A stretch of DNA of 63,718 bases, counting the filler. It is 15 parts of 15 records of this genome, joined end to end, with 100 filler letters (N's around TTAATTAATTAA, not from the genome) between each part and the next. Parts side by side here need not be neighbours in the genome. Positions count along the whole stretch, not along the records: positions 7,002 to 10,776 come from SRR15195285_5125; 14 more parts are not named here. One strand, 5' to 3'. This document shows positions 3,604 to 56,338 of the stretch, piece after piece. Positions within the stretch are counted from its first letter, which is position 1, and each line of letters begins with the position of its first letter. Both the position numbers and the translations under genes were made by a program. The notes under the pieces are model-generated. The model worked only from the letters and a program-made list of their open reading frames with translations. It ran no database searches and was not told the origin of the DNA.

Positions 3604-3703
3604 NNNNNNNNNNNNNNNNNNNNNNNNNNNNNNNNNNNNNNNNNNNNTTAATTAATTAANNNNNNNNNNNNNNNNNNNNNNNNNNNNNNNNNNNNNNNNN
3701 NNN
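3604..3703. other. Artificial contig spacer N44-TTAATTAATTAA-N44 (first of 14; others start at 6902, 10777, 19103, 22251, 27367, 31615, 34799, 39913, 43066, 48284, 52651, 56239, 59569)
   Basis: Identical 100-bp unit with stops in all six frames. Several genes are truncated at these joins. Confidence 0.99.
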
Positions 3704-4079
3704 ACACTTTGTTCTTTTCATTTTGATTAATTGATACTATAATAGCTAGATCTAGATCTACTGAATACTCTTGTCCGATCTCTTGCCCCTTATGACTGCT
3801 CATTTCTGAGACTGGAAATCAGATCCGAGATCGGCATGTAGGATCCTACCATGTTGCATCAGTCCGTGAGCTCAGCAACAGGAAGGGCAGCCGAGTTCAG
3901 TGCAATCAGAATCCCGGACCAGTGACGATTCTGCAGTCACTCTTTATCAGTGACTCTGGTCAGCAGCAGCAGTCAGCCGCCGTGCGCGCCTGGTGCTCGC
4001 CTCCGCCCGTCGCGCGTCGGTCCCTGGCACGTGGCAGCCTGGCTCGGCTGGCGTCGTCTGCCGTGGCAGCGCCGGCGGT

Positions 4080-5123
4080 ATGGACCTGTCTGCGGTTCGC
4101 GATGAGCTCTGTGCGCTGATGTTCGACCGGGCGCACGACGATGGCTCGTACGCACCGCTGCTGATCCGCTTCGCGTGGCACTGCTGTGGGACGTGGGACC
4201 ACGCCTCTCGCACCGGCGGCTCGAATGGCGGCACCATGCGCTTCCCGGCCGAGCAGGCAGACCCGGAGAATGCCGGGTTGGGGAAGGCCCGCGCACTAAT
4301 AGCGCCGATCGTCGAGAAATATGCTTCGCAACTCTCGACAGCAGACGTGTGGATTCTCGCGGGCTACGTCGCCCTGGACTGCACCGGCGGGCCCTGTCTG
4401 CGATTCCGCACTGGCCGTCGGGACTACACGGAGTCAGAGGCGGAGGCACTCTACGGGGAAAAGCGCTGCCCTTTCGGCGACGGGATCCACAACCCTCACG
4501 GCTCGCGCCTACCGGCTGCCGACCTCGGGCGCTGCCCAGTCGCAGGGAGTCTCGCCGACAGCACTCCGTCCACTCGCGAGGCTGCCACGATAGACGCCGT
4601 CCGTGGAACGTTTCGACGTCTGGGATTGACAGATAAGGAGACGGTCTGTTTGATTCTGCTCGGTCACCAGTTCGGCCGTGCGCATCCAGAGTATTCGGGA
4701 TACGAAGGCCCATGGTATGTCAACTCTCCAGCTACGTGGAACTCGGACGGTGAGGGAACCACGACTCGTGGGATGGGTTTCCTAGACGTCTTCTCCAAAC
4801 ACTGGTCGAAGTACGTGCCGGTGACCCCCGCCACTCGAGCTTCAAACCCAGACGCAGCTGCAGATACTGATTGCCAGCAACGACCGGATCTGCGTCAGTA
4901 TCAGCTGGACTACATGGGCGCAAAGTGGACGGCACTAGTATCCGATATGGCGCTAGTCTGGGACGAGGCGTACAGAGAGCATTTGGAGTTCTACGCAGCT
5001 CACCGCGAGGCATTTCAGGCCGATGCTGCCCGCAGCTGGATCAAGCTGACGGAGCTGGGTTGCCCAGAATCTCAGCTACAGAGTGAAGTTACTGATCTCG
5101 GGGAGGATGAGTTTGTGCTGTGA
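4080..5123 (+). CDS. Class I heme peroxidase (cytochrome c peroxidase/ascorbate peroxidase family)
   Basis: Distal motif YAPLLIRFAWHCCGTWD, TGGSNGGTMRF, proximal LGHQFGRAH and SGYEGPW (CCP Trp191-equivalent). First ATG at 4080. Confidence 0.88.
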   Translation: MDLSAVRDELCALMFDRAHDDGSYAPLLIRFAWHCCGTWDHASRTGGSNGGTMRFPAEQADPENAGLGKARALIAPIVEKYASQLSTADVWILAGYVALDCTGGPCLRFRTGRRDYTESEAEALYGEKRCPFGDGIHNPHGSRLPAADLGRCPVAGSLADSTPSTREAATIDAVRGTFRRLGLTDKETVCLILLGHQFGRAHPEYSGYEGPWYVNSPATWNSDGEGTTTRGMGFLDVFSKHWSKYVPVTPATRASNPDAAADTDCQQRPDLRQYQLDYMGAKWTALVSDMALVWDEAYREHLEFYAAHREAFQADAARSWIKLTELGCPESQLQSEVTDLGEDEFVL

Positions 5124-5316: not shown

Positions 5317-6901
5317 TCAAAACAAGAAGTACTTGCTCGGCTGAGTCGAACCATCAGCTTGCTTGCCGATCTCCTCATCACCATACCCGAGCTCCGCCAG
5401 GGCTGGCTTGCACGCAAATTGGATCATCGGTGGCGGTCCACACACACCAATGAAGTCACAATCTGTGCCCAGGACCTTCTCACACATCTTTGTATCGATA
5501 AACCCAACGCTGAACCCAGCGCCTGCCCACGCTGCCTTTTCATCGTCGCCAATCCGGTCGACAGTGTAGTGCACCGTCAAGCGCTGTGGGTGTGCCGCCA
5601 CCAGTTGATCGATCTCGTCCTTCAAAAGGATATCGCCTGGCGTCTGATTGCCGTACACTAAATGGAAATGGATGTCAGCATCCGGCTCTGAAGTCAGAGA
5701 GTACTTGATGACCTGGTAGGCAGGTGAAATGCCGGTCCCCCCGCACATAAACCCAAACTTCTTCCCGGTCATGGACTCACCGTTGAGGACAATGTTACCA
5801 GCACTGAGGTATTCAAAATGACCAACCGGGCCTCGCATTTCTAGGCCATCACCAATCTGCAGAGTGTCAATATACTGCGACATCTTCCCGCCCTCCGGAA
5901 ATCGATCGCACGGCCTGTATACCTTGATCACGAAGTCAACCACTCCCAGCTCTGTGTTGAGTGAAGTCGGGGTGTATGCCCGCATTACCAGTGAGCCTTT
6001 TGCATCCCGATACCGGAGGAAGATATGCCAGCCGGTAGGCAGACCAGTGCGGTGTTCGGGGGAGGGCAGAGCGAATCGAAACAGAGCCGTATCATCTGAC
6101 ATCACGATCTTTTCCGTCAGTGGGAATGACAGCCACTTCTTGGGGTTGAGGGCAACCAACTCATCCTCAGGCGCCAGTTTAAGATTCCCCTTCTCAGCTG
6201 CTTTGTCTGCTCGTTCGTATGCCTCAGCCAAGATGTTCGTTGAAGATTTGCTGTACTTCATTGTTTCATCGTCCTTTGCTTCTACAGTGAATCCGATTCG
6301 CCACTCCTCGAGGTCATCCCAGGCCTTTTTGCTGTGGATCGACGTAAACTCCTCAGAGCAATCCTCGCCACCGTTCATGGTGATCGACGTGATACCTCCA
6401 GGATGCTTCTTGAGATACTTTGTCGTGTCATAGACAATGCCATTTACGACTATCCAGCATGAATCATCCGTGTTGTGCTGCTCGACTTCTTCCATTGTGT
6501 ACGACTGGCCAATTCGTTCCGCCGCAGCAACGTCGTCACCGTCAGAGCTCACGCCACCGATGCTCACTTTGCTGCCGCTCTTCTTCATACTCGAGTCTGA
6601 ATCCTTTCTCAAGATGGACGGACTCTGTGATGGTGGGCCTTGCGATGTTGATGATTGGCCCTGTGTCTTTCGCGGTGTCATCGGCCGAGAATTTCCAACT
6701 GGAGGTCCAGCCGACGACTGCGCAAACACTTTGTTCCCCACAAAAGGAGAAGCTTGCGCCATGAATCCTGGCGATGCCGACGACCGCATGACTGGCGGTG
6801 GCGGGACCGTACCAGGAATGCCTCCGAGCACAGTGTGTGGTGCCGGCCGGCCGAGACCATCCAGGACTCCGCGGCTCTCCCGCGGTGCATCCGGGGTGCC
6901 C
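5317..6901 (-). CDS. Nitrate-reductase-type cytochrome b5 + FAD/NADH reductase module (5'-truncated at contig edge)
   Basis: b5 domain VYDTTKYLKKHPGG...GEDCSEEF..IHSKKA. FAD/NAD domain FRFALPS..GLPTG, RAYTP, FPEGGKMSQY, GGTGISP, CGPPPM. The frame stays open from 6831 to the contig end. Confidence 0.8.
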
Positions 6902-7430
6902 NNNNNNNNNNNNNNNNNNNNNNNNNNNNNNNNNNNNNNNNNNNNTTAATTAATTAANNNNNNNNNNNNNNNNNNNNNNNNNNNNNNNNNNNNNNNNNNN
7001 NCGTGGTGGGCGTGGTGGGCGTGGTGGGCGTCCGTCCTTCTGCAGGGCGAGATTTACATACCCTGCTGGGCGGCCGAGACTGGACGGCATAGTGGAGCTG
7101 AGGAGAGCAGGCAGCGCGCCCCCCGGCCGGGCGGGAGAGACAGAGAGTGCAGGGAGGCGATCGAGGTTGGAGAGTGCCCGTGGACGACGAGGTGAGGCGG
7201 TGAGCTGGAGAGAGTGTAGGGGAGGAGGAAGCGCTGTGGCGAGGCTGCCCCCCCCCCCCTGCGGGGCGGCGATACAGTACTGGAGTAGCAAAAGCGCTGT
7301 GGGTGTGGAGAATGTAGCGGCCAGTGCTGCTGCAGGGCGGAGCGACGGTGGCGGTTGAGGATGATGGCGAACAGGACGGCGGTGAGTGGAGCAGAGCGCG
7401 TGCAGTAGGGGAGCGCACCGCTGGCCATAA

Positions 7431-10400
7431 ATGGTGGTGGTGGTCCCGGTGCCCGATGATGAGCTGAAGCTGGTAGATGCAGAGACCGACCCGGTCGGTG
7501 CTGCGGCGGACGCTGGGGCAGGGTCCGTGAGGCTTCCCGAGGCTGTGCAGTCCAAGCCAACCAGCGTGGAGGACGGCGGTGCACAGAAAGTGGGTAGCGA
7601 TGTGCAGAGCTCCGGAGCAGCGCCCGCGAAGCTAGCCATCGATGACAATGGCGTCGCACTGAACGATCTGGTGGTGAGGAATTTGACCGGAAGAACCATG
7701 ATGGAGAGCGTCGTGTGGTATGTTCAAACGTACAGTCTGCCGCTAATCCTGGGAGTAGTCGCCGGCATGTGCATGGCGAACCTGGACGAGCAGTCGTACG
7801 ACGACCTGCGCCACTTCGAAGTAGTTCCGGCGGAGACGTTCGCGCTGTTCGGGCACGCGATCACCATCCACTTTGTCATCAACGATATATTCATGACTTT
7901 CTTCTTTGGCATCGCAGCCAAGGAAATCACAGAGGCTTGCCTGCCGGGTGGCAGTCTGAACCCACCGAGTAAGGCTGCAAACCCATTGTTCGCCACGGTC
8001 GGCGGCGCTATGGGTCCGGTTGCGATGTACTTCCTCAGCGCGTCGCTGCTCTACGATGCAGATGTCTTCGGGGCTCCAAGCCGGGATGACTTCTGTGCAC
8101 CGGCTGTAGCGGCGGCTGCTGCTGCTGGCGACGCTGGCGATGCGCATAGGCGGCTGGCAGCTGCTCAGCCAGCTGAAGGTGGCTCATGTGCGCTAGGGGA
8201 GAGGTGGGAAACAGCACTTGGCGACGGAGGCTGCGCAAGCGCGACTGAGCTCTGCGTAAACGGCACCGAAACCATCGTAGTCTCAAACTACACCTGGGAT
8301 ATGATCGCGAACGGCTGGGGGATTCCAACAGCTACGGATATCAGCTTGGCATGGGTCGTTGCAACTGTAATATTCGGCGTGGGGCATCCAGCCATTAGCT
8401 TCCTTTTGCTCTTGGCCGTTGCTGATGATGGTCTCGGATTGGTTATTATAGCGATTTTCTATCCTTCACCAGGCCATCCGTTCCATGGGGAATGGCTGCT
8501 CATGGTCGTCCTCGGGATGTGTGCTGCGTTTGTGCTGAGAATAAACCACGTGATGCGGTGGTGGATATACATTGGAGTGGCTGGCTCGATGTGTTGGGTC
8601 GGGCTTTTGGGAGCAGCCTTGCATCCAGCTCTGGCATTCGTTTTTGTGGTGCCATTCTTGCCAGCACTGCATGGGGAGGTGGACGGAGCGCACTCTGGGG
8701 TCAGCGTCGCCCAGGAGCCTGCAGATCTAGCGGAAGATCTTGTGGACGAAGACGACATCATGCACAAAATCTATGACAATATGCTGTCCAAATCAGCTTC
8801 GGCAAAACTGAAAGCCGAGGTGCGCAGAGTCTTTAACTCGCTTGACCTCAACAGTGACGGCGTTCTACATGTCCAAGAAATGGAGACATATATTCGCTCG
8901 CTCTCAGCAGAAACTACTGAAGAAGAGTCTGTAGAGATGCTGATCGCCAACTTTCATGCGGACATGCACACTTACATGGACTTCACAAACTCGATCCACA
9001 ACAGGCAGACGGAACCTCCTACTAGTAGTGCTCGCAAAAATAGAATTGACGATCACGATGTCGTGACTTTTGAGGAGTTCTACAAGTGGTTTGAACATAC
9101 AGGTGGCTACCACGTCCAAATGGTGAAAAGAGACCTCGATCACGTACCGCTGTTCTCGGAGATGAACGGTGTTGACAAACAAGTGCTAGCAAGAGCGGTC
9201 TCATTCGCTTCTACTCGAGGGCACAACGGCCACTTGCGTGTTTACAAACCAGGCGAACAGATCGTGACTCAAGGTGATGAGGGGCACGAGATGTTTATCG
9301 TGCACGCAGGCGCGTGTGTGGCCATCGGAGAAGATGGTCAGGCTGGTCAGCACTATTCCGGTGTCACCCACCCAACCACTCACGAGCACACTTTCGGCGA
9401 GGTAGCGTTGTTGAGCTCGATAAAGAACAAAGGTGCGCAAGGGGCACGGCGTGCGTACACGATCACAGCCACTGAAGACACCACTGTCTGGACGCTGGGA
9501 GACCACGAGTTGCGAATCGCGGGGCGGCAAGTTTTCGATCAAGTGGTAGCGATGGCTCAAGCCTATCATGATGCAAAGGACGATGAGGTCTATCACGACC
9601 ACGCGCCTCTGCATATGTTCGAACACCAAACAAAGTTTGCAGTGGATATTGGAATGTTCTTTTTTGCTTGGGCAAATGCTGGAGTCAAGGTGGCCGGCGC
9701 CGGAGGCATGACATGGGTTGTCCTCGCGTCGCTCCTGCTCGGGAAGGTATTCGGCATCGTATTGATGGTACGTCAATAATGCCGCCTCAGACACCATTGT
9801 ATTGCGTGGCACTGTTATGATAGACGTTCTCTGTGTGCTGATGTTGTTTGAAATGCATGCTGCGCCGTACGACAGTCCGTGCTAGCAGACAAGTTAGGGC
9901 TCGGCAAAAGGCCGGCCGGAGTAGGTGTGAAAGAAGTGTTCATAGTTGCCTTGATCGCATCGATCGGCTTGACGGTCGCACTCTTTGTGACTGGCCAAGC
10001 CTTCGCGACTGACGCCGGACTCGAACGGGACGCAAAGCTTGGTGCCTTGCTGTCAATGTTCAGTGCGGTTCTCGCGTTTGCATTTGCGAAGCTCCTTGGA
10101 GTAGGTGGCAAGTCGGACGAGCGTCTGGCGAACATGTCGAAAGCTGATCGCTTCTCCGAAATCTTCTTCAAGGCAGAGCGTCGCCAATATGTGGAGGCCA
10201 AGGCGATGGCAGATGCGAGCAAGGCAGCTGCGGATGCGGCGATTGCATCCAATCGTAAATTTGCCAATATGATCACCGATCTTCATGACGAGGTACGAAC
10301 GTTAAAACGCCGTATCCAGCAGCTCGAGAGTGCCCTGCCGGATGGAGTGGCAAGCGCCATGGACTTCGTTGCATTGACCGAGGCAAAGAAGGATGCCTAG
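7431..10400 (+). CDS. nhaA: NhaA-family Na+/H+ antiporter with internal EF-hand + cyclic-nucleotide-binding domain; exons 7431-9767, 9876-10400
   Basis: NhaA motifs INDIFM.FFFG..KE, GWGIPTATDI, LAVADD, LHPALA..VPFLP, FEH..FFAWANAGV, LLGKVFGI, ASIGLTVALFV, AKLG. Phase-0 GTACGT...CAG intron 9768-9875 joins the two track ORFs in frame. The start codon is uncertain. Confidence 0.88.
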
Positions 10401-10964
10401 GAAGCACGCTGAGACCGGCAGCCGAGTATGAAGTACTGAGGCTAGGTCATCGCGAAGTTTCTCTGGAGTGATGCTATCACTGAGGACTGGCAGCATGAAC
10501 TACAGAGCTGACAGTCATTCCAATGAATCTCTTTAGTCAACACGTGACATTCGAATGGTTCCTTATTCTACAGGGTCAATCAAGAAAAGGATTCAAGCTC
10601 GTCCTCTTCGAGCTCCGCTGCCGCTGTGGTCGCGCCAATTCCCAAGCTTGCCCAGGGGGTCGACAAGCCTCCTTTCAGCTGGTTTTGACCGAGCTTGCTC
10701 ACGCCAGCTCCAGACTGCGTAGTCATGCCCTGGCCCGCATCAGCTTTCTTTAACTTGGAGGTTCCCGCAGGCAAGGNNNNNNNNNNNNNNNNNNNNNNNN
10801 NNNNNNNNNNNNNNNNNNNNTTAATTAATTAANNNNNNNNNNNNNNNNNNNNNNNNNNNNNNNNNNNNNNNNNNNNGGTGCTGGTGCTGGTGCTGGGGGC
10901 TAGGTGGTGCTGGTGTTGTTGTTGTTGGTGGTGGTGGTGGTAGGGGGTGGACTCGGGGTTTGCG

Positions 10965-13900
10965 ATGTTCAAGACGTTTGCTCGGGAGCGGGTGGTGCCG
11001 TGGGAGGGCCTCGATGGCATCCAGGTGAGCTCTGCTCTGTGCTCGCCGTTCTCGGTCGGACGTCGGCAGGCTGAGCGCTGGCGACAGAGCGACGTCAGCA
11101 GCTGCTGCTGGCCCCGGCCGCAGAATGACGCTCACCGGCCGTGCGTGCTGGCGCGCAGGGGCATCTGGCGGAGTCGCTGCGGCGGATCAAGAAAAACTCG
11201 AGCAAGAAGATGGCCGACCTCCACAACAGTTGCGCCGCAGCGCTTGTGGAGCTCGAGAAGGAGATACCCGCCGCCCAGGTCCAGGGAGACATCAGAACGA
11301 AAATCCACATCATCTTTGAGCCATTCCGCCTAACCTGCGACGAGAAGAATGTCAAGGTCCGTGGCGTCGTGCTGTCTGCCTTCTCCACCCTTCAGCCTCG
11401 CTCCGCGCTCACATCGGCCGCGCCGCCGCTGCACAGACGGTCGCGTACGCGCTGGACTGCATCGAGAAACTTATGGAGCACGGGTTCTTGATACCAAGCC
11501 CTGGTGATCGCAGTGACGCTGGCCAGCTGATCGACCAGGCTGTGGCATGTGTGAGCGACTGCTTCACAGTGCCTGACGACATGGTCCAACTGCAGATCGT
11601 GCAGGCCTTGGAGATCGGCGTGAAGGTGCAGCACTCGGGGGTCCACGAAGGGAGCCTTTTGACGGCGGTGCGCACCATCTACAACATCTACTTGAACCCC
11701 AAAAGCGCTGCGAATATGGACAGGGCGCTCGAGGCGCTGCAGGCAATTCTGAAGGCTGTTTACAAGCGCATGGAGACAGCCAGCGTGGAGGAGGCCATGA
11801 ACGCGCTGGACGCGACGCGCTCAGACGCATCCACGGACGGAGCCCCGCCACCTCCGCTGGAGAGGATTGAGGCAGCAGACCCAGAAGCTGTGGTTCTCGA
11901 CGTGTCTGTCGATGGTGAAGAACTGAGCGCCCCGCCGCCCATCGCAGATGTGGAGCCGGAGCCGGAGCAGGAATCCGGCCAGGTGGCTACGCCGCGCCGT
12001 AGCTCAGTGGTGGCGCTGGAGCAGAAACTCGGCGACACATCCATGAACGAAGAGGACGAAGGTGCAGACACATCTGGGGCCACGTTTCCAAATATTTACC
12101 AGAAGGATGGCTACCTACTATTCCGGGCCCTGTGCAAGCTGTCGATGAAGGAAGTAACGAAGGAGCAGCTACCCGACTCTGTGCCGGTGCGGAGCAAGCT
12201 GCAAGCGCTCAGTCTGATCCAGTCAGTGCTCGAGACGGCCGGCCCAGCGTTCCGTAGCGCCGAAAAATTCGCGTATGCCATCAAGCAGTACCTCTGTTTG
12301 TCACTGCTCAAGAACTGCGTGTCTCCATTCGATTCCGTTTTCGAGATCTCTTTGGCAATTTTCGATAACCTTGTGGTCAACTTTATTGACCACCTCAAGA
12401 CGGAGCTGCAGGTGTTTTTTGAAAATATCTTCTTCCGTTTTCTCGAGAGCCCGAGCTCGTCATTCGTGCACAAATCCGCCGTGCTGGACAGCGTTCGCCG
12501 CATGTGTGCGACCGCACAATTTCCGGTGGACCTGTACCTGAACTATGACTGTGATTTTGAGGGTGCGAACGTGTACGAGCGACTGATCACGTCGCTTTCA
12601 GACATGGCTCGAGGGCACGATGTGCCCGTGGCGATACGAGAGGGCCTCGTCACGCCACAGCAAGGACAGCAGCTGGAGCTAGCTGCTCTGGAGACCCTGG
12701 TCACCTGCGTGTCCTCGATGGTGGATTGGTGCAATCACTGTGACGCCGTCCATGCTAGGGAGGCTGAGGCTTTGAAGTCAGATGCAGAAGATGTGAACGA
12801 AGATGATCTGGAGGCGCTGATTGAGAAGGAGCGTGGAGCACGCGGCAAGCTAGGGAAAGGTGAGCAGGCTGAAATGGCGGAAAAGCAGAAGCGTCGCAAG
12901 GACTTGCTTGTGCAGGCTGTTGAAAAGTTCAACCTCAAGCCAAAAGCCGGCGTCTTATTCCTGCAGAAATGTGAACTGATCCCTCCCGGCACTGGGATCG
13001 ATGCTGCGACAAAGCTGGCGCAGCTTTTCAGAGAGACAGAAGGGTTCGACAAGACAGAGATGGGTGACTACATGGGCGAAGGGGGTACGCCAAAGACTGC
13101 CTTCAATGTGAGCGTGCTGCACGCCTTCATCGACACCTACGACTTTACTGACATGACGTTCAGTGAGTCGCTGCGGTCACTACTCAAAGGTTTCCGGCTG
13201 CCTGGTGAGGCACAGAAAATCGATCGTGTCGTTGAGAAGTTTGCCGAGCGTTACTGCAGCCACAATCCAGGCTCGTTTGACAACGCGGATGCTGCCTACA
13301 CGCTCGCGTACTCTGTTATCATGCTCAACACAGATCGGCACAATCCAATGGTCAAGAAGAAGATGGAGCTCGAGGACTTCTTGCGAAACAACCGCGGGAT
13401 TAATGGCGACGGCGGCGATCTGCCGAAGGAGATGTTGACGACAATTTTTCACGAAATCGTTGCAAACGAAATCAAAATGAAAGAGGATGGAGAGGACTGG
13501 TCGAAGCATAGCGGGATGCTCACGTCCAAGCAGCGCCAGCAGATGTGGCAGGATGAGTCCGACCGTATCATCAAGCAATCCACGCAGATGTTCTCTTCCA
13601 AGCGCTCTGACGTCCGCAAGTTTCACCATGCTAACGAAAAACACCATGTCTCCCTGATGTTTAAAGCTTCGTGGTGCCCCTTGCTTGCTGCCTTTAGTGT
13701 CATCATGGAGGAGGTCGACGACCCAAGAATCATTGACCTCGTCCTGAAAGGTTTCTCCGCGGCGGTGCACATAGCCTCAACGTTTTTCATGGATGTGGAG
13801 CGTGATGCATTTGTATCGACGCTGGCTAAATTTACGCTGCTGCACACGAACGATAAGCAGATGAAGGAAAAGCATGTGGAGGCAATCAAGACGATCCTTG

Positions 13901-16900
13901 CCATTGCATTCCTTGAGGGAGACTACCTCGAAGACTCCTGGGGACTGATTCAACGAACCATCTCGCAGCTTAACCAGAAGCATCAATTGTTGGACGGGGC
14001 GAGGGATGATGCCAGCTTCTTTGCGGGTGCAGCAGACACGCCTGTGCGTGGAGCGGGTGCGGGTGCAATCGCAACAGCTCAGCCTACAAGAGAGCAGCAG
14101 GAGTATCTCTACGCGCTGCCGCTGCAGGACCAAGTTGACCGTGCTGAGATCGAGCGGATCTACTCCAACTCCTCAAACCTCAACTCAGAAGCTGTGATAC
14201 ACTTCGTAACGCACCTGGTCAAGGTCTCTCAAGCGGAATTAGAAAGCTCGCAGCCAAGTATCTTTTCGATGCAAAAGATTGTGGAGACGGCGGCGGCCAA
14301 CATGGACCGCGTGCGCATTGTGTGGTCGCAGATCTGGAAGATTTTACAGGTGCATTTTCAGAACGTGGGCTGCCACGAAAACATGCGGATCGCAATGTAC
14401 GCCATTGATAGTCTGCGGCAGCTTGCACGGAAGTTTTTGGAGAAGGATGAGCTGATGGGCTTCGACTTCCAACAGGATTTTCTGCTTCCTTTCGAGCACA
14501 TAGTCCAGAACTCGCGTTCCAACCAGAACCGAGAGCTCGTGGTGCGGTGCCTCGACCAGATAATCCAGACGAGCGCCCAGAACCTCAAGTCTGGGTGGCG
14601 AGCGCTGCTGAAGGTGCTGGTTGTGGCCGCTAGCGATCAGGATGAAATGATCGTCAACCTTGGATTCAATATTTCCGAGACGGTGATGAAACAGCACTTC
14701 GGAGAGATCAAGGAAATCTTCAGCGACATGGCCCACTGCATCGTGGCGTTTGGTTGCAACAAGACCAACACTACGGTGTCACTCGCAGCAATTCGCCACC
14801 TGAAGGACAATCTCAGCCTCAAGCTAATTAATGGCGACGTAATTCCGTTGCCCGAACCATCGCAAGCTAGTCCAACTTCGCACAGTTTCCTGTTCACCGA
14901 GGCCCACGCCAAATACTGGTTCCCGCTGCTGATAGGAATCGCAAATTTGGTAAATGATGAGCGCCCAACAGTCCGGACGACTGCACTCGAAGCTCTGTTC
15001 CACATTCTTCGCAAACACGGTGCTACCTTCTCGCATGAGCTTTGGGGTCTTGTGTTCAAGGGCGTGCTTATCCCAATTTTTGACAACGTTCGTCACGCTG
15101 GGGAGGAAGATGAGAGCACCGACGAGTGGCTGCAGCGGACGTGTTTTCTCGCACTGCAGCAGCTAGTGGATCTCTTCGTTCACTTCTACGACATTGTTGT
15201 CTTCTTGTTAGGTGATGTCCTGGATCTCCTCACCAATTGTGCCGAACAGGACAGAGAGAACCTGGCCCGCATCGGCGTCGCCTGCTTCACCCGCCTATGT
15301 GTCTCGTCCGGCGAATGCATGGAGCCCGAGGTTTGGTCGCAGGTCACAGACACGTACGCTGCACTGTTCGAGAACACCGCACCAAAGGAGCTGCTGCTGC
15401 GGACGGACACGATGGACGACGACGCGGCAGCAGCGGCCGAGGCTGCCGAGAGCGCTCGAGATGCAGCGACAGCAGCGTTGAGCGAGACTGCGGAGGTGCG
15501 GAGCGTGTACGAGGCGAAGATGGAGCAACTGGAGGTCATGGCAAGACACGAAGGTGAGCTACAGGACGCTGCAGCGGCTGCGCAGAAGCGTGCGGCGGCG
15601 GCTGCAGAGGCAGCTGCGGAAGGTGGCGCGGTGGGGGGAGGTGGGGGCGACCCGGCGGCGCTCGCGGCGGCGGCAAGCGAGGCAGAAATGGAGGCGCAGA
15701 CTCAGTCGCAGGCCAAGGCCGAGGTGCAGGAGGAAGCCCGACGGGCAGCAGAGCTGTTAGCAACGCTCGAGGACGCTGCGGGTGGACAAGAGGCTGTGGC
15801 GGAGGAGGCGGCGGCCGCTTATGAGCGCTCGCAGACCGAGCGTGAGAACCTGCTACGCTTCCATGGTGTGCGTTGCAAGTGCGTCGTCCAGCTCTTGCTA
15901 ATCGACTCAGTGGAAGAGGTGTTCTTCAAGCACGGCCACTTGCTGCGCTGTAACCAAATCGAGGCGTTGCTCGGTGCGCTCACGCGCTGCCATGAGTTCG
16001 CCCGAAATTTCAACGCGGACATTGAGCTGCGCAATGAACTGTGGTCTCGGGTAAGAATTCCACGCCCGCAGCAACAAATGTATCGCGACTGTTCACGGAT
16101 CCCAGCTGTGCAATCCTTGCGCTCCTTCGCTCCATGCATCACTGTCCGTTTCAGGTCTGTCTACTTTTGCTGGCCACATTCAAGTGGCAGTCTCAGCGAA
16201 ACTACGCTGTGCTAAAACACACTACGAATGCTGTTTTCCTCTTGTCACCAGGGCTTCATGAAGAAGGTGCCAAATTTGCTCAAGCAGGCGGGCAACGGGA
16301 TCGCCTGCGCGCTGCGAGTGCTCTTTCGGCTTTATAGCCCGGACATGCTCGATGGTACAGCCGACGTTCCAGCTGATGAAGCTGCTAATCTAGACCAAGA
16401 TAGCACTGACAGAGGTGCAGGAATAGGCGCAGCAGGTGTACCGGTCGGTCTGCAGGTGCTGCCGCCGGAAGAGGTGCGAGCTCGGCAGGAGCTGGCGGAA
16501 GGGTACGTTCTCCTCTTTATTCTCGCATCGCTTACTCACGCGACCACGACAGAGATGGATCTAAGATCTTGAACTACTGTCCATTAATTGCTGTCCTCGC
16601 TTATGCATTCCATCAGGCGTTTAATCTCGCTCTGCCTGGAAGTGATGACGTTCTACATCTCCCTATCACGGCAGATTGACGACCTTGGTGCTGGAGAAGG
16701 GCCAGGCGTCTTATCCCCGAATGAAATGTCGCCTGGCGGCTCGGTACTCCCACATGCTGCGGCACCGGAGGCTCGAAAGGAGGTGGAGGCATACTCGCCC
16801 ATTATGGTACTGCTGTTGCGAAATTTGCATATGCTCTCGCCCCCGAGCCAGTTCGCGAAGCACTTGCCGACATTCTATCTGTAAGTCACGGTTCCGGTTG

Positions 16901-22835: not shown

Positions 22836-25800
22836 GCCGCCGCTGGCAGCAGCGTCCGGCGCTGCATCGGACTACGCCTCGCTGCTCGAGAGCTACAAGG
22901 GCACGAAGCTTCAGCGCCGGGCCGCCAAGGGGCACGCTGAGGACGACTCTGCCGACAGCTTGTCTAGCGACGACGAGCAAAGCGAGATCGATGTGTACTT
23001 CGACGTAGAGACAGATGGCGGCGGCCGCGACGAGGTCTGCGTCTCCGTCCGCCGGACAGAGACCATGCAAATGGTGGTGGAGCGGGTTGCAGCTGCGGTC
23101 GGGCGAAGCCGCGAGCAGGTGTGCGATCTGATGGAGCTAGCCGCCGGCAATGAGCGGCAAACAGTGGCAGAGGTGAGCCCATCGCTATCCTTGCCGTGGC
23201 GGCAGGCGCTCACGGACGAGGACTGCCGCTTTGTAGTGCCCCGCATGGACACGCCACCTGCGCGGCGCGGCCCCCTTAGCCCGAGGGACCACGATACGAT
23301 GATCAGGTGGCGACAGCTGCCCGTGATTCGCTGGAGCACGTACTGGTAGCAGAGATGTCGCAGCTGGAGGAGCAGCGCGCGAGGCTGTCTGCGCAGTTGC
23401 GCCAGGCAGAGGTAGAGCTGGCGTCGTCGTCGCTCCGCTGCACAGAACTGCAAACAGAATGCATGGGCTTCCAGTCCGAGTTCGTCGGGATGTCGCGAGA
23501 TCATGAGCAGCTAAGCGTCGCACACGAACGGCTGACCGACGAGTGCCAGCAGCAGGCAGAGCAGTTGCAGCAGATGGTATCAGAATGTGAGGCCATGCGC
23601 GCCAGCGTGCTTCAGGCGCACGCTGCGACTGCAACGGAACTCTCGGTAAGTAAGGTTATGGAACAGCTACAGGATGAGCTGTGCCGCCTCCAGTGTGCCC
23701 TCGGGGACTCGGACGAAGTCGCCGCTACCGGTAGCTCGCTTGTTGCCAGCTCTGCCGTGAGCACGGACACTTACTCGCGTGAAGAGGAGCTGAGCGCCCT
23801 ACGAAGTGAGCGTGAGAAGCTACAGTCCGACCTGCTGCAAAGTGAGGACGAGCATACACATGATATCGAACGACTAGAATCTCAGCACGCTGCGGCCCTG
23901 GCCGCTCAGCGCGAGGAGTCAGTCGCAGTGATCGCACAGCTCTCGGCAGAGCATAGCAGGGTCGTCAAGCACTTGCAGGAAGATGCAGCGTATGCGACGG
24001 CGATATCGGCTGGTGGTTCTGCTGGTGACTGCGCTGATGATGAATCGGCGGAGCTGACACGTCGCCATCGAGAGGCCCTCCGTGCTTTGCAGGCTGAGCA
24101 CGACGTGGAAATGGCGCGCTTGCGTGAAGAGCACGCAGAGCAGCTGGCACGCCACGTTGAAGAACTTGAAGCAGTGTCGTTCCTGGTTGAGGTACCACTG
24201 GTGAAGTCCCTTACCGCTAGTGAGCTGCGAGATGTTGCGGCGACAATGGCCTCCGAATACTATGAAGACGAGAATATCGTAGAGGAGGGAGAGGTAGGCG
24301 ACTCGATGTATGTGATACAATCCGGAACAGCTGTGGTCGAGAAAGATGGTAGGCCCGTTGCGACGTACGGTCCGCGCGACTTCTTTGGCGAGAGGGTTCT
24401 GGTGATGTCAGGTTCTTTGGATGTGGGAGCAGGAGGAGGAACCGCGGCTCGTGCTGCAACAGTGCGTGCTGATGGCCCAGTGCAGTGTTTTCGCCTTGGT
24501 CAAGGTCCAGCAGAATCGCTTATGCAACGCTATGGACATATCAAGGAAGCGTTTGAAGCAAGGAGCAGACAATACGAAGAAGAGGATTATGCGAACAGTG
24601 TTAAGCGCAAGAGTAACTCTGGTAAGGACGGTACCAGTGTGACTCCTGTAAATAGACAACATGCATCATTATTGGGAACCCACCGTGGCGTCGATGCCGC
24701 ACGACAAATGGAGCCGACGACGGTGAGTACTACCATGATGGCTATCCTGGTGGACGCTATTTGCACGCTTTCTCGGGCTACTGCTCGAGGATTGCAGCTC
24801 GCTAAAATTGAGCGAAGTTACAATATTTTGCGCGAAGAGTTCGAGAGTCTTGGCGCTGCCTACAAGTTAAAACACCAAGAAGAGACCACCTTGCAGTCAC
24901 ACCTGGTAGCAATGGCCGCAGAAAAGGCAGAGGCCTTGGCAGCGAAATCAGCATCTGCGGAGGCTCTGAGAACTGTGAGTGGTGGTTATCAGGCTAACAT
25001 CGAGGCCAGCAGTGTGGAACTACGGAGCACAAAAGTAGCTCATGAAACTCTTCAGGCTAAACACACTGAGCTGACCGTAGAGCTTCGAGCAGCAACAAGC
25101 AAGCTCGAAGAGGCACAAGACGTCATCAGTCGGGTATTGGTGGAGAAGTCTCAAGATGCGGCAGCGGCTGCTGAGGTTGCTGCACAATCAGCCGAAGCCT
25201 TGGAACTAGAGCGGGCTAGAGTGAAAGAGTTGGAAGCAAACTTTACACATACGAAGCAGAGGCTCGACACTTTGCAGGACAGGTTTCGACAGCTTGAACA
25301 GGAAGAGGCAGCGACCACTCGGGCACTACGGGTGGTAAAGCAACTCTTGACTAGGATCGATGCAGGGCATGTGTTTGAGCAGTTTGACTCGAATGGCGAT
25401 GGTAGAGTGACAAGAGCAGAGCTGAGAGCTGGGTGCCTGCAAATGGGCTTGTGGCCACTGTTGTGCAGTTCCAAAGGTCAGGCTGAAAGCGTTGAAGGAC
25501 AACAAGATTTAGGTGTGGCAGCTGATAAGACGACGCCAGTCCTCGACGAAACAGATGAGAACGCCGTCACAATGACTATAGATTCCATTGTGCGCCTTGC
25601 TGACGCAGACGGCGACGGTACTATTGACGCGGCTGAATTTACGCGGTTGGGTCAGATGAAGCAAGAACTAGACCGCGTTTGTGACCAGATGGCGACCGCC
25701 CAGCATGAGGCAGAGTCAAAGCTAAGCCTGCTTGCTCAAGAGTCACAGCAGCACGTAGCAGAATTACGGCAGGCGTCAGAAGCTGAGCTGGCAAACGCAA

Positions 25801-26273
25801 ATGCCAAGTTAGCCGCGGCGCTAGTCGACCGAGACAGTGCACTGGAAAGGACTGTAATGCTGGAGGAGCAGCTGGCTTCGAGTGTCAAGAAAGGTAGTGC
25901 ACTGGAGGCGAGCCTGGCAGCATCACGAGAGCAGCTTGCTGGCATGTATAACGCGGTCGAGACTCAACATCGGGGTGTGGCACAGCTGAAAGAGCAGCTG
26001 AATCATGCAGAAAACAATATGAAGCACACGCAGACGATGCTAGATACGTCTGTTCAGCGGGCAGAGGAGCAACGTGCAAGGTTCAAGGTAGAAGTGGACA
26101 GCCTGCGCCAGGAACTTTCTCGGGTGACGGAGGAAGCACACTTGTCGGAGGTAGCGCTAACGGCAGCAATGGATGTCGTCGAACAGTGCCGAACGAAGGT
26201 TTCGCCTGCGGATTGGTCAACAATCACGGGGGCTACACAGCCACAGCTGCAGCAACACCCGAATAGTGCATAG
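22756..26273 (+). CDS. Coiled-coil protein with cyclic-nucleotide-binding domain and EF-hands; probable intron 23173-23279
   Basis: CNBD IVEEGEVGDSMYVIQSG...FFGE...RAATV. EF-hands DSNGDGRVTRAE and DADGDGTIDAAE. A GTGAGC donor and a phase-0 TAG acceptor link the two ORFs (CAG at 23306 is an alternative acceptor). Confidence 0.75.
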
Positions 26274-49321: not shown

Positions 49322-52300
49322 TCACCGCAAAGCACTGCTGGGGCGGACATACTTGTTCGTAGCTACTCGTAGTTTGCATTTCAATGCAGATGGGCCCGCC
49401 GTAATCGGTGTGCAGTCAACGGTGATAGTGTTGGTCACTGTGGATTCCCGTGCAGGTGCAGTCAGGCGCGGAGATGCTGTCGCGGATCTTGCTCGGACAA
49501 CCCGCGAATTGAGTGTCCAGCTGGTGTTGTAATGCCACTGCGAGCGACGTGGCGTGCGTGAGTCCGGTGTCTTCGGTTCCAATGGTGGAGATGGTCTGAA
49601 GAAGAATCGCTGCTCTGAATGCACAACTGATGTACCAGCCTCCGCCACGCGTTCACCTTCTAGCACGGCCTCACCGGAGTAGGTAGCATTATTTCCACCG
49701 TTCCGTGCATCCACGACCCGCGCTTCCCAGGCGAGCCGGTTACTGCTTGTGGCGGGAGCAGATGATGGGCGTCGCTTGATCTGTGCCTTCCACGATGGGG
49801 GCGATGGTAGCATAAGTGCTGACGCTGGAGCTTTTCTACAAACCTTCACATAGACCTGCTGAAAGACGGCCTGGGCTCGAAGGTGCCCAGTCCCTGCTAG
49901 GATATCTGCTGTATGCATTCCTCCATGTAGCAGACGCTCAGTTTCCACGCTCGCCCTGGCCGTCTCCAACTGCCATAGATTCTCTGCAGGATCATTCTGA
50001 GTTTTCGAATACGAGTTGTCTTCGCTTTCGTCAATCGTCTGCATACCGTTCCTGAGAGGTTCGTCTGCCATGTCTATTGCCTGGCTTGGGGATGACCCAG
50101 CTGTCGTTGCGGCTGGCACTGTCTGCGCTGACACTATCTGCAGAGGTTCAGCTTCTACGCTCGTGCAACTTCCATGTTTTGTCTGCGCCAACTTCCATAT
50201 TTTGTCTGCTTGTGCTAACATGTCCTGAGTCTGTGCACATCCGTTTGGAAGCTTGTCTGTCATATGTGTTGCCTGCCTAGGGGACGACCTAGCTGCCCTC
50301 GCTTCTGCGGCTGCCCTTGCCCTGGCTTCCTTTGCTTCTTTTGCCTTCCTTGCCCCAGATGTTTTCATTGCTGCTGTCCTCCTTGCCGCTGCTGCCTTCT
50401 CTGCGGCTGCCCTTGTCCTGGCTTCCTTTGCTGCTTTTGCGTACCTTGCCCTGGATGCTTTCATTGCTGCTGTTCTCCTTGCCGCTGCTGCCTTTTCTGC
50501 TGCTGCTGCTGCCTTTCTTGCGGTGGCGGCGACGGTGGCGGCGGCGGCGGTGGTGGCGGCAGCGGCAGCAGCGGTGGCAGCACCGCCTTTCTTGGATTTC
50601 TGCGTCTGTTTAGGCTTTGCAACTACTTCTTCATCTTTCTCTTCAATTTGCAAGTTGTTGGCCTTCTCTTCTACTTCGAGAACAGGCACATATATATCGC
50701 GTGAAATTCCTGAAATATCGACTGCTGCATCTGTGTCCTCTTTGTCTACCAACTCGTAATGACCCTTGGCGCTGAAGCCGTCAAGACGCAGTTGCAGCAC
50801 CTTGAGTTTTCCTGTCGGGGTCGTAATCTTGTTGAAGAGGAACGATAGCATCGTGGCGTATTTTTCTTCTTCTGAATCGCACGACTCGAACAGCTCTTCC
50901 TTCCCCTCATCTTCCACCCATGACTGCGCAAGCTGGAACATAGACTCCAAGAATGTGTCGTACGGCATCAACTGCTCGAAAGGCCTTTCGGACAGGAAGC
51001 TCTGCAGCTCTTTCGCGTCGACAACCCCATCTTCACTTTCATCAATCGCCTGGAAAAGGCCTTTGATGTTTTCGTCTGATATCACCTTCGTGCCCACCTT
51101 GGCGATATCTCGGATAATAGTTGTGAACTCATTTACATCCAGCTCACCAGAGCCGTCGCTGTCGAATTGCGCAAAGAGATGCATCCAGCCGATCCGATCA
51201 ATTTCCTCTCGACACGCCTCCTGAACGAGCAGCTTGAGATCACGCCGCCGCTGGAGTTGCAGCCTGTTCTGCCGTGTTTTGCCTTTGACCGCGGGCGAAT
51301 CTGAAGCCAGATAGTCCACCAATTCTTGTGACGACACCGAACCTCCACCATCTTTATCCACGTCACTAAATATCTCCTCAAGCTCGTCATTTTCAATCGA
51401 GATACCTGTCTTGTTGACGAGGCGCCTTCCTGCCGCTCCCATGGATTTTTGCGCAAGCAACGTTAGGCGTGTTGGAACCTTCATGCGATCGCGCACAGCC
51501 TCACGGAACTCTTCGAAATCAACCTCACCAGAACCATCGGCATCCATACTTTCGAACAGCTCGTGCCACCCATTTTTGGCCACGGTTGATCCCAGCGCCT
51601 TCAGCAGCTTTGCTTTCACCTTCTCTACCCACATTGCGACCCGAATGCTGTTTGCGCCATGTGTCATGTCCTCGCACCAGTCTGCGTCTGCGATTTTTTC
51701 AGCTCGTTCAAGGTCGAAATCCTCCGCGCTGACCAACAAACGCGAAATCCGACAGTGCAGCTGTTTATAGGCGTTCGCATCGATTCCACCACGCTTCCCC
51801 AACGCGAGGGCGCGCTTTGCTACCAGCCACCGGCCTCGAGCCGTACCACGTTCTTCATGTTGCGACGCGTCGTGTTCGGTCAACCTACGCAAGACCTCCC
51901 AAAACCGGTCGATGATATCTACACATGCTGTTGATTGGCGCAGGGCCGTGCGCGCGTCGTAGGTCTCTACTTGTTTCTCCAACATGAGCATTCGCTGCTC
52001 CGGTGTGGTCAGCCTCAACAGATCGTGTCTGTACAGCGAGTACACCTCCGTATGCATATCGGTTGTCGTCACGGTCGCCAAACGGAACTTACTGCCACCG
52101 AGCATCAGCACTTCGCCAAAACATTCTCCAGGCGTCAGCTCGCTCACCCTGCCGACGCCCCGCACATGAACACATGGGTTGCCCACCTTCACGATGAACA
52201 TGTTCTCACCGCGTTTACCCTCTTTGACGATCTCGATTCCCGGGCGGCTGAAAACATGTTTGCTCAAGCTAGTGGCCAACATCATGAGGTTGGCCTTACC

Positions 52301-52650
52301 GAGAGTTGAGAACAGATCTATCGCTGCGAGCATGTCAGCGCGCTCTTCCAGAACCTCGCGGTCGCCCCAGGCTTTCTCCATCACTTTTATCGCGTCTCCG
52401 CCGCTGCATCGTAAACACCGTGTCGGCTCAGTAGTGATGATGGAGGCCGTACGCCGGTCTGTCGCTAGGAACAGGCACATTTCGCCGAAAACCACTCCCG
52501 GTTCTGTCAGGTCGTCCACGACTCCGATGCCGTCTACATGAACCGCACACGCGCCCGATTCTAGCACGTACAGCCCGTTGGGCGCATCGCCCTGTGCGAA
52601 CACCACCTCCCCATCGCTGTAGCTCATCTGCTCCATGCCAATGGCCAGCA
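49322..52650 (-). CDS. Tandem CNBD + multiple EF-hand protein with Ala/Lys-rich repeat, probably 5'-truncated
   Basis: Two CNBDs (VFAQGD...FGE...RTASI; IVKEG...FGE...RLATV). Four EF-hands: DADGSGEVDFEE, DKDGGGSVSSQE, DSDGSGELDVNE, DESEDGVVDAKE. Confidence 0.85.
50304..50495 (-). repeat. Coding tandem repeat, 2 x 96 bp (KAAAARRTAAMK..KEAR.RAAAE)
   Basis: Two near-identical 32-aa units in the 1104-aa ORF. Confidence 0.85.
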
Positions 52651-52811
52651 NNNNNNNNNNNNNNNNNNNNNNNNNNNNNNNNNNNNNNNNNNNNTTAATT
52701 AATTAANNNNNNNNNNNNNNNNNNNNNNNNNNNNNNNNNNNNNNNNNNNNTGCTGCCGCTGGTGGTGGTGGTGGTGGTGGTTGGTGTGCACACAAGGGCA
52801 TACGGCTCCCC

Positions 52812-56119: not shown

Positions 56120-56338
56120 CTGGGAGGCAAGGAGGGAAACGGCCCAGGATGGCCTCCCCCGCCTAACCCTCACACACTTTCTGACCACCTCACAGACCCG
56201 CCAGCCAGGGCGGCGGTCACGGGTAGTGAATGGTCTGGNNNNNNNNNNNNNNNNNNNNNNNNNNNNNNNNNNNNNNNNNNNNTTAATTAATTAANNNNNN
56301 NNNNNNNNNNNNNNNNNNNNNNNNNNNNNNNNNNNNNN

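Follow-up and report, generated by a model that had tools for sequence, protein, structure and literature searches.

The window analysed here (63,718 nucleotides (nt), 63.7 kb) consists of 15 contigs of 3.0-8.2 kb, which stem from a fragmented, multi-contig eukaryotic bin and are joined by 100-nt spacers (N runs around TTAATTAATTAA); the GC content varies from 50 to 64%. One contig of 3775 bp (window positions 7002-10776) harbours a gene for a sodium/proton antiporter of the NhaA type whose loop between transmembrane segments (TM) VIII and IX is expanded by an EF-hand pair followed by a cyclic-nucleotide-binding domain (CNBD). Since this contig stands alone between spacers, its neighbours in the window are not physically linked to the NhaA gene. 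An initial annotation, made from the sequence alone, had described this domain order and proposed that the exchanger is controlled by Ca2+ and cyclic nucleotides. As detailed below, the architecture was borne out, whereas the two proposed modes of control are uncertain.

The gene is encoded on the plus strand. An uninterrupted stop-to-stop frame (7431-9779) passes through both junctions of the insert, and a GTACGT donor at 9768 together with an AG acceptor at 9874-9875 delimits the spliceosomal intron that had been noted initially (Table 1). Joining 9767 to 9876 preserves the frame (...GKVFGIVLM joined to SVLADKLGLGK...) and yields a two-exon product of 779 + 174 = 953 residues, which at the splice point agrees with the continuous full-length homologues P0006 and P0007. 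The homologues P0003, P0004 and P0005 have the same start as the window protein. These three and P0271, all called from unspliced DNA, run into the intron at exactly the same site (...M-V-R...), so that the position of the intron is conserved.

The stretch is present in 19 public marine or seawater runs from 16 studies, six of these runs being RNA libraries. One DNA run and three RNA runs, all in the form of Logan contigs rather than raw reads, were compared with the gene. A contig from RNA run X16 (record 19) joins position 9766 to 9875 and thereby skips 108 nt with GT..AG borders (cut shifted by +1), which is the predicted intron. A contig from RNA-library run X10 (record 7, 9200-10199) keeps the intron; it could represent pre-mRNA or DNA carry-over and was not counted as a splice variant. 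Further RNA-library contigs lie within the insert (X15 at 8752-9286 and 9262-9438, X16 at 8809-9264) or cross its 5' junction (X10, 8517-8757). Among the RNA contigs of the three runs there was no joint that skips the insert, the sole joint being that of the 108-nt intron. Stretches of the gene that are free of RNA contigs in single runs were given no weight. In addition, X2 record 29, a DNA contig of 2505 nt that comes from another study, is colinear with 8436-10776 and bridges both insert junctions, covering the complete insert along with TM VII-VIII, TM IX-XII and the 3' end. The gene is thus real and transcribed, and belongs to an uncultured marine eukaryote. Closely related versions of it, be they alleles or strains, occur in different samples: other runs contain the population variants R673Q (window position 9448, codon 673), G580D (9169) and Q584E (9180), all of which match residues of the 99%-identical P0003; R673Q adjoins the conserved arginine R674 of the nucleotide-binding cassette (see below), which stays unchanged.

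The membrane part of the protein is recognised by PF06965 (Na_H_antiport_1), in the split manner around EF-hand and PF00027 that the initial annotation had expected: exon 1 matches in three stretches with E 9.6e-34 (117.3 bits), and exon 2 matches profile positions 306-371 with E 1.6e-9 (37.6 bits), in both cases above the gathering score of 23.5. E. coli T132/D133, D163/D164 and K300 correspond to T302/D303, D332/D333 and K772, respectively. T302, D303, D332 and D333 are invariant in all of 12 aligned eukaryotic and bacterial sequences and K772 is nearly so; the alignment confirms that the equivalents of D133, D163/D164 and K300 are intact, as had been read from the sequence. Relative to solved NhaA chains, residues 285-412 of the query align with 115-239 and residues 722-778 with 243-306. 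As query residue 412 pairs with chain residue 239 and query residue 722 with 243, about 310 residues (413-721, nt 8667-9593) are inserted between TM VIII and IX in place of residues 240-242, at the very loop named in the initial annotation. Over TM IV-VIII, identity to P0004, P0005, P0006 and P0007 amounts to 97, 88, 68 and 68%.

An AlphaFold model of full-length P0006, a 42%-identical homologue, was obtained from a 40-row alignment with a mean predicted local distance difference test score (pLDDT) of 75.6. Its ten best Foldseek matches were crystal or cryo-EM structures of NhaA (target TM-scores 0.76-0.82), with CNBDs coming next. The model has a beta-hairpin in loop I-II, and in the structural alignment this subfamily is about 14-15% identical to E. 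coli NhaA. The Pfam scan of the window protein gave no match to PF00999 (CPA1 exchanger) at E<=1 and no voltage-sensor domain (VSD). We predict a NhaA-type (CPA2, PF06965) antiporter with a full ion-binding set, which would presumably exchange Na+ (Li+) for H+; the antiport typical of NhaA, of Na+ (Li+) against 2H+, is electrogenic and is activated at alkaline pH.

In the second half of the insert, PF00027 covers residues 603-693 (E 2.7e-9, 37.3 bits, cut-off 27.5), and this family scores above its cut-off in five of five full-length members of the clade (38.2-42.9 bits in the homologues). An AlphaFold model of the window protein's own insert, based on a 7-row alignment, displays an eight-stranded roll (strands within insert residues 198-277), a short internal helix and two C-terminal helices. 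Foldseek found 366 matches to this model in the PDB at E<=1e-3; those listed were all CNBD proteins, with CNGA1/B1 at the top (E 1.7e-7) and PKA RI-alpha, Bcy1, SthK, HCN2 and PKG among them (probability 1.00). Fold and family thus agree with the CNBD that had been proposed. The canonical phosphate-binding cassette has the pattern G-E...R-[AST]-A-[TS]; G656/E657 and R674 (the latter followed by A-Y-T) are kept in all five members. In canonical CNBDs, this G-E pair and the arginine contact ribose and phosphate, and the domain may plausibly bind a cyclic nucleoside monophosphate (cNMP).

The first half comprises an acidic linker and the EF-hand pair. EF-hand models of Pfam match within residues 461-491 with E-values of 8.7e-5 to 8.4e-3, the best being EF-hand_7 (residues 461-488, E 8.7e-5, 23.2 bits, cut-off 30), followed by EF-hand_6 (18.6 bits, cut-off 25) and EF-hand_1 (16.0 bits, cut-off 25.4). 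At the sequence level, solved chains of calmodulin and troponin C match the EF region with E ~4e-4 to 1.4e-3. In the insert model, this part folds as helix-strand-helix twice, with two short strands (66-68 and 132-134) in positions that suit an EF-hand pair; in the P0006 model, block pLDDT values range from 64 to 94 over the EF and CNBD region and from 87 to 94 in the EF pair. A canonical Ca2+-binding loop has 12 residues, with acidic or polar ligands at positions 1, 3, 5 and 12, a glycine at position 6 and a hydrophobic residue at position 8. Loop 1 fits this pattern (D-x-N-x-D-G-x-[ILV]-x-x-x-E) at positions 1, 3, 5, 6, 8 and 12; it is canonical in P0005 as well, and nearly so in P0007. Both the EF-hand and the second, degenerate EF-like helix of the initial annotation were found where it had placed them. 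Identity to P0004, P0005, P0006 and P0007 is 81, 69, 29 and 35% in the EF pair and 83, 72, 31 and 32% in the CNBD, in contrast to 58, 33, 13 and 13% in the linker, whose pLDDT is below 50 (insert residues 1-40). These far higher identities indicate that the two folded parts are under clear constraint, whereas the linker is not.

Table 1. Features of the NhaA gene, further elements of the window and related proteins (positions are those of the window)
Feature	Position	Strand	Remarks
Exon 1	7431..9767	+	779 codons: acidic N-terminal tail, NhaA TM I-VIII, insert, TM IX-X
NhaA core, TM I-VIII	7707..8666	+	residues 93-412; T302/D303 (nt 8334-8339), D332/D333 (nt 8424-8429)
Loop III-IV insert	8046..8300	+	residues ~206-290, ~80 aa, Cys-rich, between TM III and IV; probably extracellular/luminal
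Acidic linker	8667..8795	+	residues 413-455; poorly conserved
EF-hand pair	8796..9110	+	residues 456-560; loop 1 canonical, loop 2 degenerate
EF loop 1, DLNSDGVLHVQE	8844-8879	+	residues 472-483
CNBD	9111..9575	+	residues 561-715; cassette from FGE 655-657 to R674 (nt 9393-9452)
NhaA TM IX-X	9594..9767	+	residues 722-779; E731/H732 (E. coli E252/H253), K772 (K300, nt 9744-9746)
Spliceosomal intron	9768..9875	+	108 nt, GT..AG
Exon 2	9876..10400	+	174 codons (to 10397) + TAG: NhaA TM XI-XII and C-terminal helical tail
C-terminal helical tail	10125..10355	+	heptad I/L/V pattern, probable coiled coil; conserved in P0006
Spacers	3604-3703, 6902-7001, 10777-10876 and 11 more		100 nt each
Open reading frame	11320-16215		1631 residues
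CNBD + EF-hand open reading frame	23280-26273	+	997 aa; CNBD 326-418, EF-hands 697-790
CNBD + EF-hand open reading frame	49322-52702	-	1126 aa; two CNBD stretches (E 4.4e-25), EF-hands 379-568
Band_3_cyto-NhaA proteins	outside the window		P0056, P0102, P0124, P0126-P0130, P0132, P0141, P0144, P0151

Relatives were sought among 5.8 billion clustered proteins, and the best 120 of 934 matches were examined. Within these 120, PF06965 was combined with PF00027 in five proteins (P0003, P0004, P0005, P0006 and P0007, with 99, 79, 66, 42 and 42% identity, respectively) and with Band_3_cyto in two. Including that of the window protein, five full-length clusters from JGI, ENA, Logan and EukProt share the architecture; the search in other sequence sets that the initial annotation had suggested thus retrieved it in four further clusters (79, 66, 42 and 42%). 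An exhaustive HMMER search of 1.84 billion representatives yielded 2066 matches; in a list of 150 of these, an unbroken alignment through the insert is seen for P0004 and P0006 alone, and P0009 and P0221 are truncated fragments reaching into it. The length of loop VIII-IX was determined for those 147 of 286 stored homologues in which both flanking motifs were found. The median is 30 residues; lengths of 281-319 residues occur only in the clade with EF pair and CNBD (15 entries, some of them near-duplicates), and all other loops have at most 180.

In a quick, unrooted maximum-likelihood tree of 66 sequences, 30 short bacterial-type proteins are found on one side of a branch with 100% support in the Shimodaira-Hasegawa-like approximate likelihood-ratio test (SH-aLRT). 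The five proteins with EF pair and CNBD form one set together with the truncated P0008, P0009 and P0183 (99% SH-aLRT); P0183 has a very long branch, and this fragment ends in an apparent CNBD start. The closest short relatives are bacterial proteins annotated as NhaA by their source, 48-55% identical in the core region. The wider eukaryote-type group has the dinoflagellates Symbiodinium natans (P0107) and Pelagodinium beii (P0121) as its named members. As the gene belongs to this broad clade, the horizontal acquisition of NhaA that the initial annotation had put forward would not be private to the organism of the window. A search with the insert alone (residues 415-720) retrieved only three proteins, all of the same clade, and no free-standing donor of the cassette. 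When metagenome contigs were scanned with P0001, five loci of 42-54% identity were obtained, two of which (L002 and L005) have spans too narrow for the insert; a search of the Atlas with the whole of P0006 gave no usable match.

One homologue, P0247 (836 aa, N-terminally truncated), has ~450 aa of its TM VIII-IX loop taken up by three canonical EF-hand pairs in tandem (PF13499, E 1.6e-31), and Pfam detected no CNBD. Judged by these domains, P0247 is a candidate for a purely Ca2+-sensing NhaA. Since it has EF-hands at this site but groups apart from the set with EF pair and CNBD, loop VIII-IX has probably been used for the insertion of sensors more than once. A shared origin of the EF insertions of P0247 and of the clade was considered and found to be unsupported: the similarity of the EF parts is weak (E 7e-4 and 0.002), and the two lie apart in the tree. 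With a branch of 1.24, however, such an origin keeps some probability.

Apart from these loop insertions, a large group of eukaryote-type NhaA proteins, 790-1490 aa in length, bears at the N-terminus a domain resembling the Band 3 cytoplasmic domain and PTS-EIIA (PF07565, up to 72 bits). All nine long NhaA proteins scanned match this Band_3_cyto/EIIA-like domain at E<=1e-3, three of them above the Pfam cut-off, and three more were found in another scan. To all appearance, this is a further regulatory fusion of NhaA that has so far gone without comment.

Two further parts of the window protein deviate from bacterial NhaA. The insert in loop III-IV, which is absent from bacterial-type relatives, contains an HRRL motif common to dinoflagellate homologues, two N-glycosylation sequons (NGT and NYT) and four cysteines conserved within the clade with EF pair and CNBD. 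Loop III-IV is periplasmic in E. coli NhaA, and with the topology taken from there the insert would face the cell exterior or a lumen, as suits a membrane protein of the secretory pathway. The C-terminal coiled coil of the initial annotation is upheld as far as the helical, heptad-patterned tail is concerned, but matches to coiled-coil families in Pfam are weak (E 0.017-0.17) and below the cut-offs. In the P0006 model the tail forms two helices (766-794 and 803-836), mostly of low pLDDT (block means 41-83).

The cytoplasmic pH gate of E. coli NhaA comprises D11, E78, R81, E82, K153, E252, H253 and H256, and its moving half consists of the N-terminal end of TM IX and the TM8-TM9 loop; the way in which this pH sensor or gate around TM IX governs entry to the ion site is a matter of continuing debate (PMC9606361). 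In the window protein, E731/H732, which correspond to E252/H253 and hardly vary in the subfamily, follow 10 residues after the end of the insert; E78 is kept as E165. Three residues separate the last helix of the CNBD (593-621) from that of TM IX (625-648) in the P0006 model. The C-terminal helix of CNBDs serves as a ligand-dependent lid, and the short helical link from CNBD to TM IX would therefore make a plausible lever. According to our proposal, a cyclic nucleotide occupying the CNBD would reposition its C-helix, and in the window orthologue Ca2+ bound to the first EF-hand may act likewise on this helix. Movement of the C-helix would shift the start of TM IX, such that the cytoplasmic funnel opens or closes or the pH set-point is changed, and Na+/H+ exchange would thereby respond to second messengers. 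With moderate confidence, we regard such control of the pH gate by a ligand (cNMP, perhaps Ca2+) via the CNBD C-helix and TM IX as the most likely mechanism; ligand binding, coupling and direction of the effect are deduced from the anatomy of the protein. More tentatively, and with somewhat less confidence than in the mechanism itself, we suggest that a clade of marine-protist NhaA proteins may have turned the pH gate into a second-messenger gate by inserting sensors (EF pair plus CNBD or, in a separate lineage, six EF-hands), with the CNBD lid helix as the lever on TM IX.

Several observations weigh against this proposal. Relative to yeast Bcy1 and mammalian RII-beta, the window protein has an insertion of eight residues between the cassette helix and the arginine; its cassette is six residues longer than that of a canonical CNBD from the same bin, and all five members have such an insertion of 6-8 residues, which might alter the binding of a ligand or prevent it altogether. 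The residue after the cassette arginine has a bearing on cGMP preference in PKG and cyclic-nucleotide-gated channels. It varies across the five members (A/T/S/A/Q), so that a nucleotide preference cannot be read from it. Every Pfam score for an EF-hand is below its cut-off. Two homologues have a degenerate EF loop 1, namely P0004 (79% identical; Cys at position 1, Asp at position 6) and P0006 (Tyr at position 3), and loop 2 (ending in VVTFEEF in the window protein) is degenerate in all five members, from which it follows that Ca2+ sensing is not a conserved property of the clade. It has to be kept in mind, too, that the model of the own insert is moderately confident (pLDDT 63) and that the full-length model is that of the 42%-identical P0006 rather than of the window protein. 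Finally, the gate residues are kept only in part (R81 is replaced by E168, E82 by A169 and H256 by K735, and K153 is without counterpart), and the gate model of E. coli may therefore not transfer. Of the cyclic-nucleotide control proposed in the initial annotation, what stands is the G-E pair and the arginine in all five members, set against the lengthened cassette. Of the Ca2+ control, the canonical loop 1 of the window protein and P0005 stands, set against its decay in P0004 and P0006 and the degenerate loop 2 throughout; binding of Ca2+ appears plausible in the window orthologue, but not clade-wide.

Some of the same features would fit an insert that is blind to ligands, a reading we consider unlikely on balance, though deserving serious attention. 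Here, a CNBD-homology domain, as in KCNH channels, together with a pseudo-EF pair would serve as a scaffold for assembly, dimer contacts beneath the interface of the NhaA dimer, targeting or docking of a partner protein. The lengthened cassettes, the degenerate EF loops in several orthologues (loop 2 in all), the EF-hand scores below cut-off and the variable residue after the arginine can all be understood in this way. Ligand-blind CNBD homologues typically lose the cassette arginine, however, whereas here it is retained with the G-E pair in five of five members despite only 29-35% identity across the clade, and EF loop 1 is fully canonical in the window protein and P0005. We thus stay with a ligand-responsive module as the preferred reading.

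Distinctly less probable is that the architecture is as described while the core has abandoned Na+/2H+ exchange in favour of K+/H+ exchange, transport of another cation or a messenger-gated leak. The NCBIfam equivalog for NhaA (TIGR00773), scored in two pieces, reaches only 79.4 bits in exon 1 and 33 bits in exon 2 relative to a cut-off of 254; R81, E82, K153 and H256 are not conserved, and identity to E. coli NhaA is as low as ~14-15%. Yet the equivalents of T132/D133, D163/D164 and K300 show little or no variation, the bacterial NhaA-annotated proteins mentioned above (48-55% over the core) are the closest among the short relatives, and the low equivalog score is partly technical and to be expected, because a divergent protein is split by a 310-residue insert and an intron and scored in pieces. 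Effectively refuted, in turn, is an artefact, be it a chimeric assembly of NhaA with EF and CNBD genes or an insert that is an intron or otherwise spliced out, both of which the initial annotation had named as possible objections: the contig is short (3775 bp), from a fragmented bin, and the supporting runs are contigs, not raw reads, but one open frame runs through both junctions, the 2505-nt DNA contig of an independent study spans them, contigs of RNA libraries cover parts of the insert as well as its 5' junction, with the 108-nt intron as the only joint, and five full-length clusters from different sources share the architecture down to 42% identity.

A comparison with known systems shows where the window protein departs from them. 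With NhaA of E. coli and Salmonella (PDB 1ZCD, 4AU5, 7S24, 7A0W) it has in common the ion-site residues and E78/E252/H253; a 12-TM fold as in NhaA, where TM IV and XI are unwound and cross, and the beta-hairpin in loop I-II are predicted from the homologue model. In addition, it has the ~310-aa EF pair and CNBD in loop VIII-IX, the ~80-aa Cys-rich, sequon-bearing loop III-IV, a 90-aa acidic N-tail, the heptad-patterned helical C-tail and the spliceosomal intron; it lacks R81, E82, K153 and H256 and stays below the NCBIfam cut-off. The other eukaryote-type NhaA proteins (P0107, P0121, the Band_3_cyto fusions and P0247) likewise have the long form, the HRRL loop and an enlarged loop VIII-IX (60-180 aa versus a median of 30). 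Pfam detected no CNBD in P0107, P0121, the nine Band_3_cyto proteins, P0141, P0132, P0151 and P0247, and the extra domain of the Band_3_cyto fusions is N-terminal, unlike the loop insert of the window protein. The same pair of domains is found in soluble EF-hand and CNBD proteins of the Atlas (~260-290 aa, most commonly from Bacillariophyta), the nearest of which match the insert by language-model features (0.90 and 0.89) and make a tentative lead.

In SLC9C1, the sperm-specific Na+/H+ exchanger (NHE), the exchanger domain comes first, with VSD and CNBD located C-terminally of it. As an exchanger fused to a CNBD it resembles the window protein and provides a functional precedent for a secondary transporter modulated by cyclic nucleotides. 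It belongs to CPA1 (PF00999), whereas the window protein is without a PF00999 match and without a VSD and has its CNBD within a loop of the transmembrane domain. According to its abstract, which names no EF-hands, the study on SLC9C1 describes a Na+/H+ exchanger with VSD and CNBD in which cAMP shifts the activation range (PMC6052114). Plant SOS1/NHX7 has a C-terminal CNBD-like region (PMC3548769, as far as the excerpt goes), and NHE1 binds the EF-hand protein CHP1 (PMC8190280, likewise an excerpt). SOS1/NHX7 and NHE1 with CHP or calmodulin resemble our proposal in that they are Na+/H+ exchangers under Ca2+-linked control; they are CPA1 proteins and are regulated through separate subunits or C-terminal tails rather than through inserts in a transmembrane loop. 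What appears to be novel is therefore the placement of sensors inside the gate loop of an NhaA scaffold. The architecture is apparently undescribed, in line with the initial annotation: no NhaA or PF06965 protein with a CNBD or EF-hand was found in the literature, most subscription journals, supplements and the InterPro architecture tables being outside the coverage. The papers retrieved dealt instead with SLC9C1, SOS1, NHE1 and CHP1, NhaA of E. coli and the evolution of the CPA family.

NhaA is the structural paradigm for Na+/H+ antiporters of the CPA type, and here two classical ligand sensors, conserved and expressed, sit at its debated gate. If the module responds to ligands, it would provide a natural, switchable handle on the gate model, with TM IX moved by a ligand instead of pH. 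It would also represent a second, independently evolved cyclic-nucleotide-controlled solute carrier beside SLC9C1, with a different coupling geometry, and would hint that marine protists tie cNMP and Ca2+ signalling to Na+/H+ exchange. If a second-messenger gate indeed operates, the protein would be a ligand-gated secondary transporter, a principle unlike that of the described regulated Na+/H+ exchangers with their C-terminal tails or separate subunits, and fast pH or Na+ signals triggered by cAMP, cGMP or Ca2+ would become possible. More generally, eukaryote-type NhaA proteins appear to have repeatedly acquired cytoplasmic regulatory domains, either Band_3_cyto at the N-terminus or EF-hands, with or without a CNBD, in loop VIII-IX.

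The other contigs of the window encode typical eukaryotic proteins, such as CDC20/Fizzy, a HECT ligase and a protein kinase. For the CDC20 of the bin, the best non-self match is 85% identical, and named matches reach at most 67% and come from unrelated eukaryotic groups. Two other large open reading frames of the bin combine CNBD and EF-hands in an order opposite to that of the NhaA insert (Table 1), which indicates that both messengers are in use in the organism or bin. As donors of the insert they were rejected: they show only generic CNBD similarity (29%, E 3e-7; E 0.013), and their domain order differs. Further coding regions include a haem peroxidase (PF00141) at 3954-5123 (+), a 542-aa protein at 5317-6945 (-) that resembles a cytochrome b5 with a FAD/NAD(P) reductase, as judged by eye from the translation, and a GH123-like glycosidase with an F5/8 type C domain (PF19543, E 8e-94) at 56291-58807 (+).

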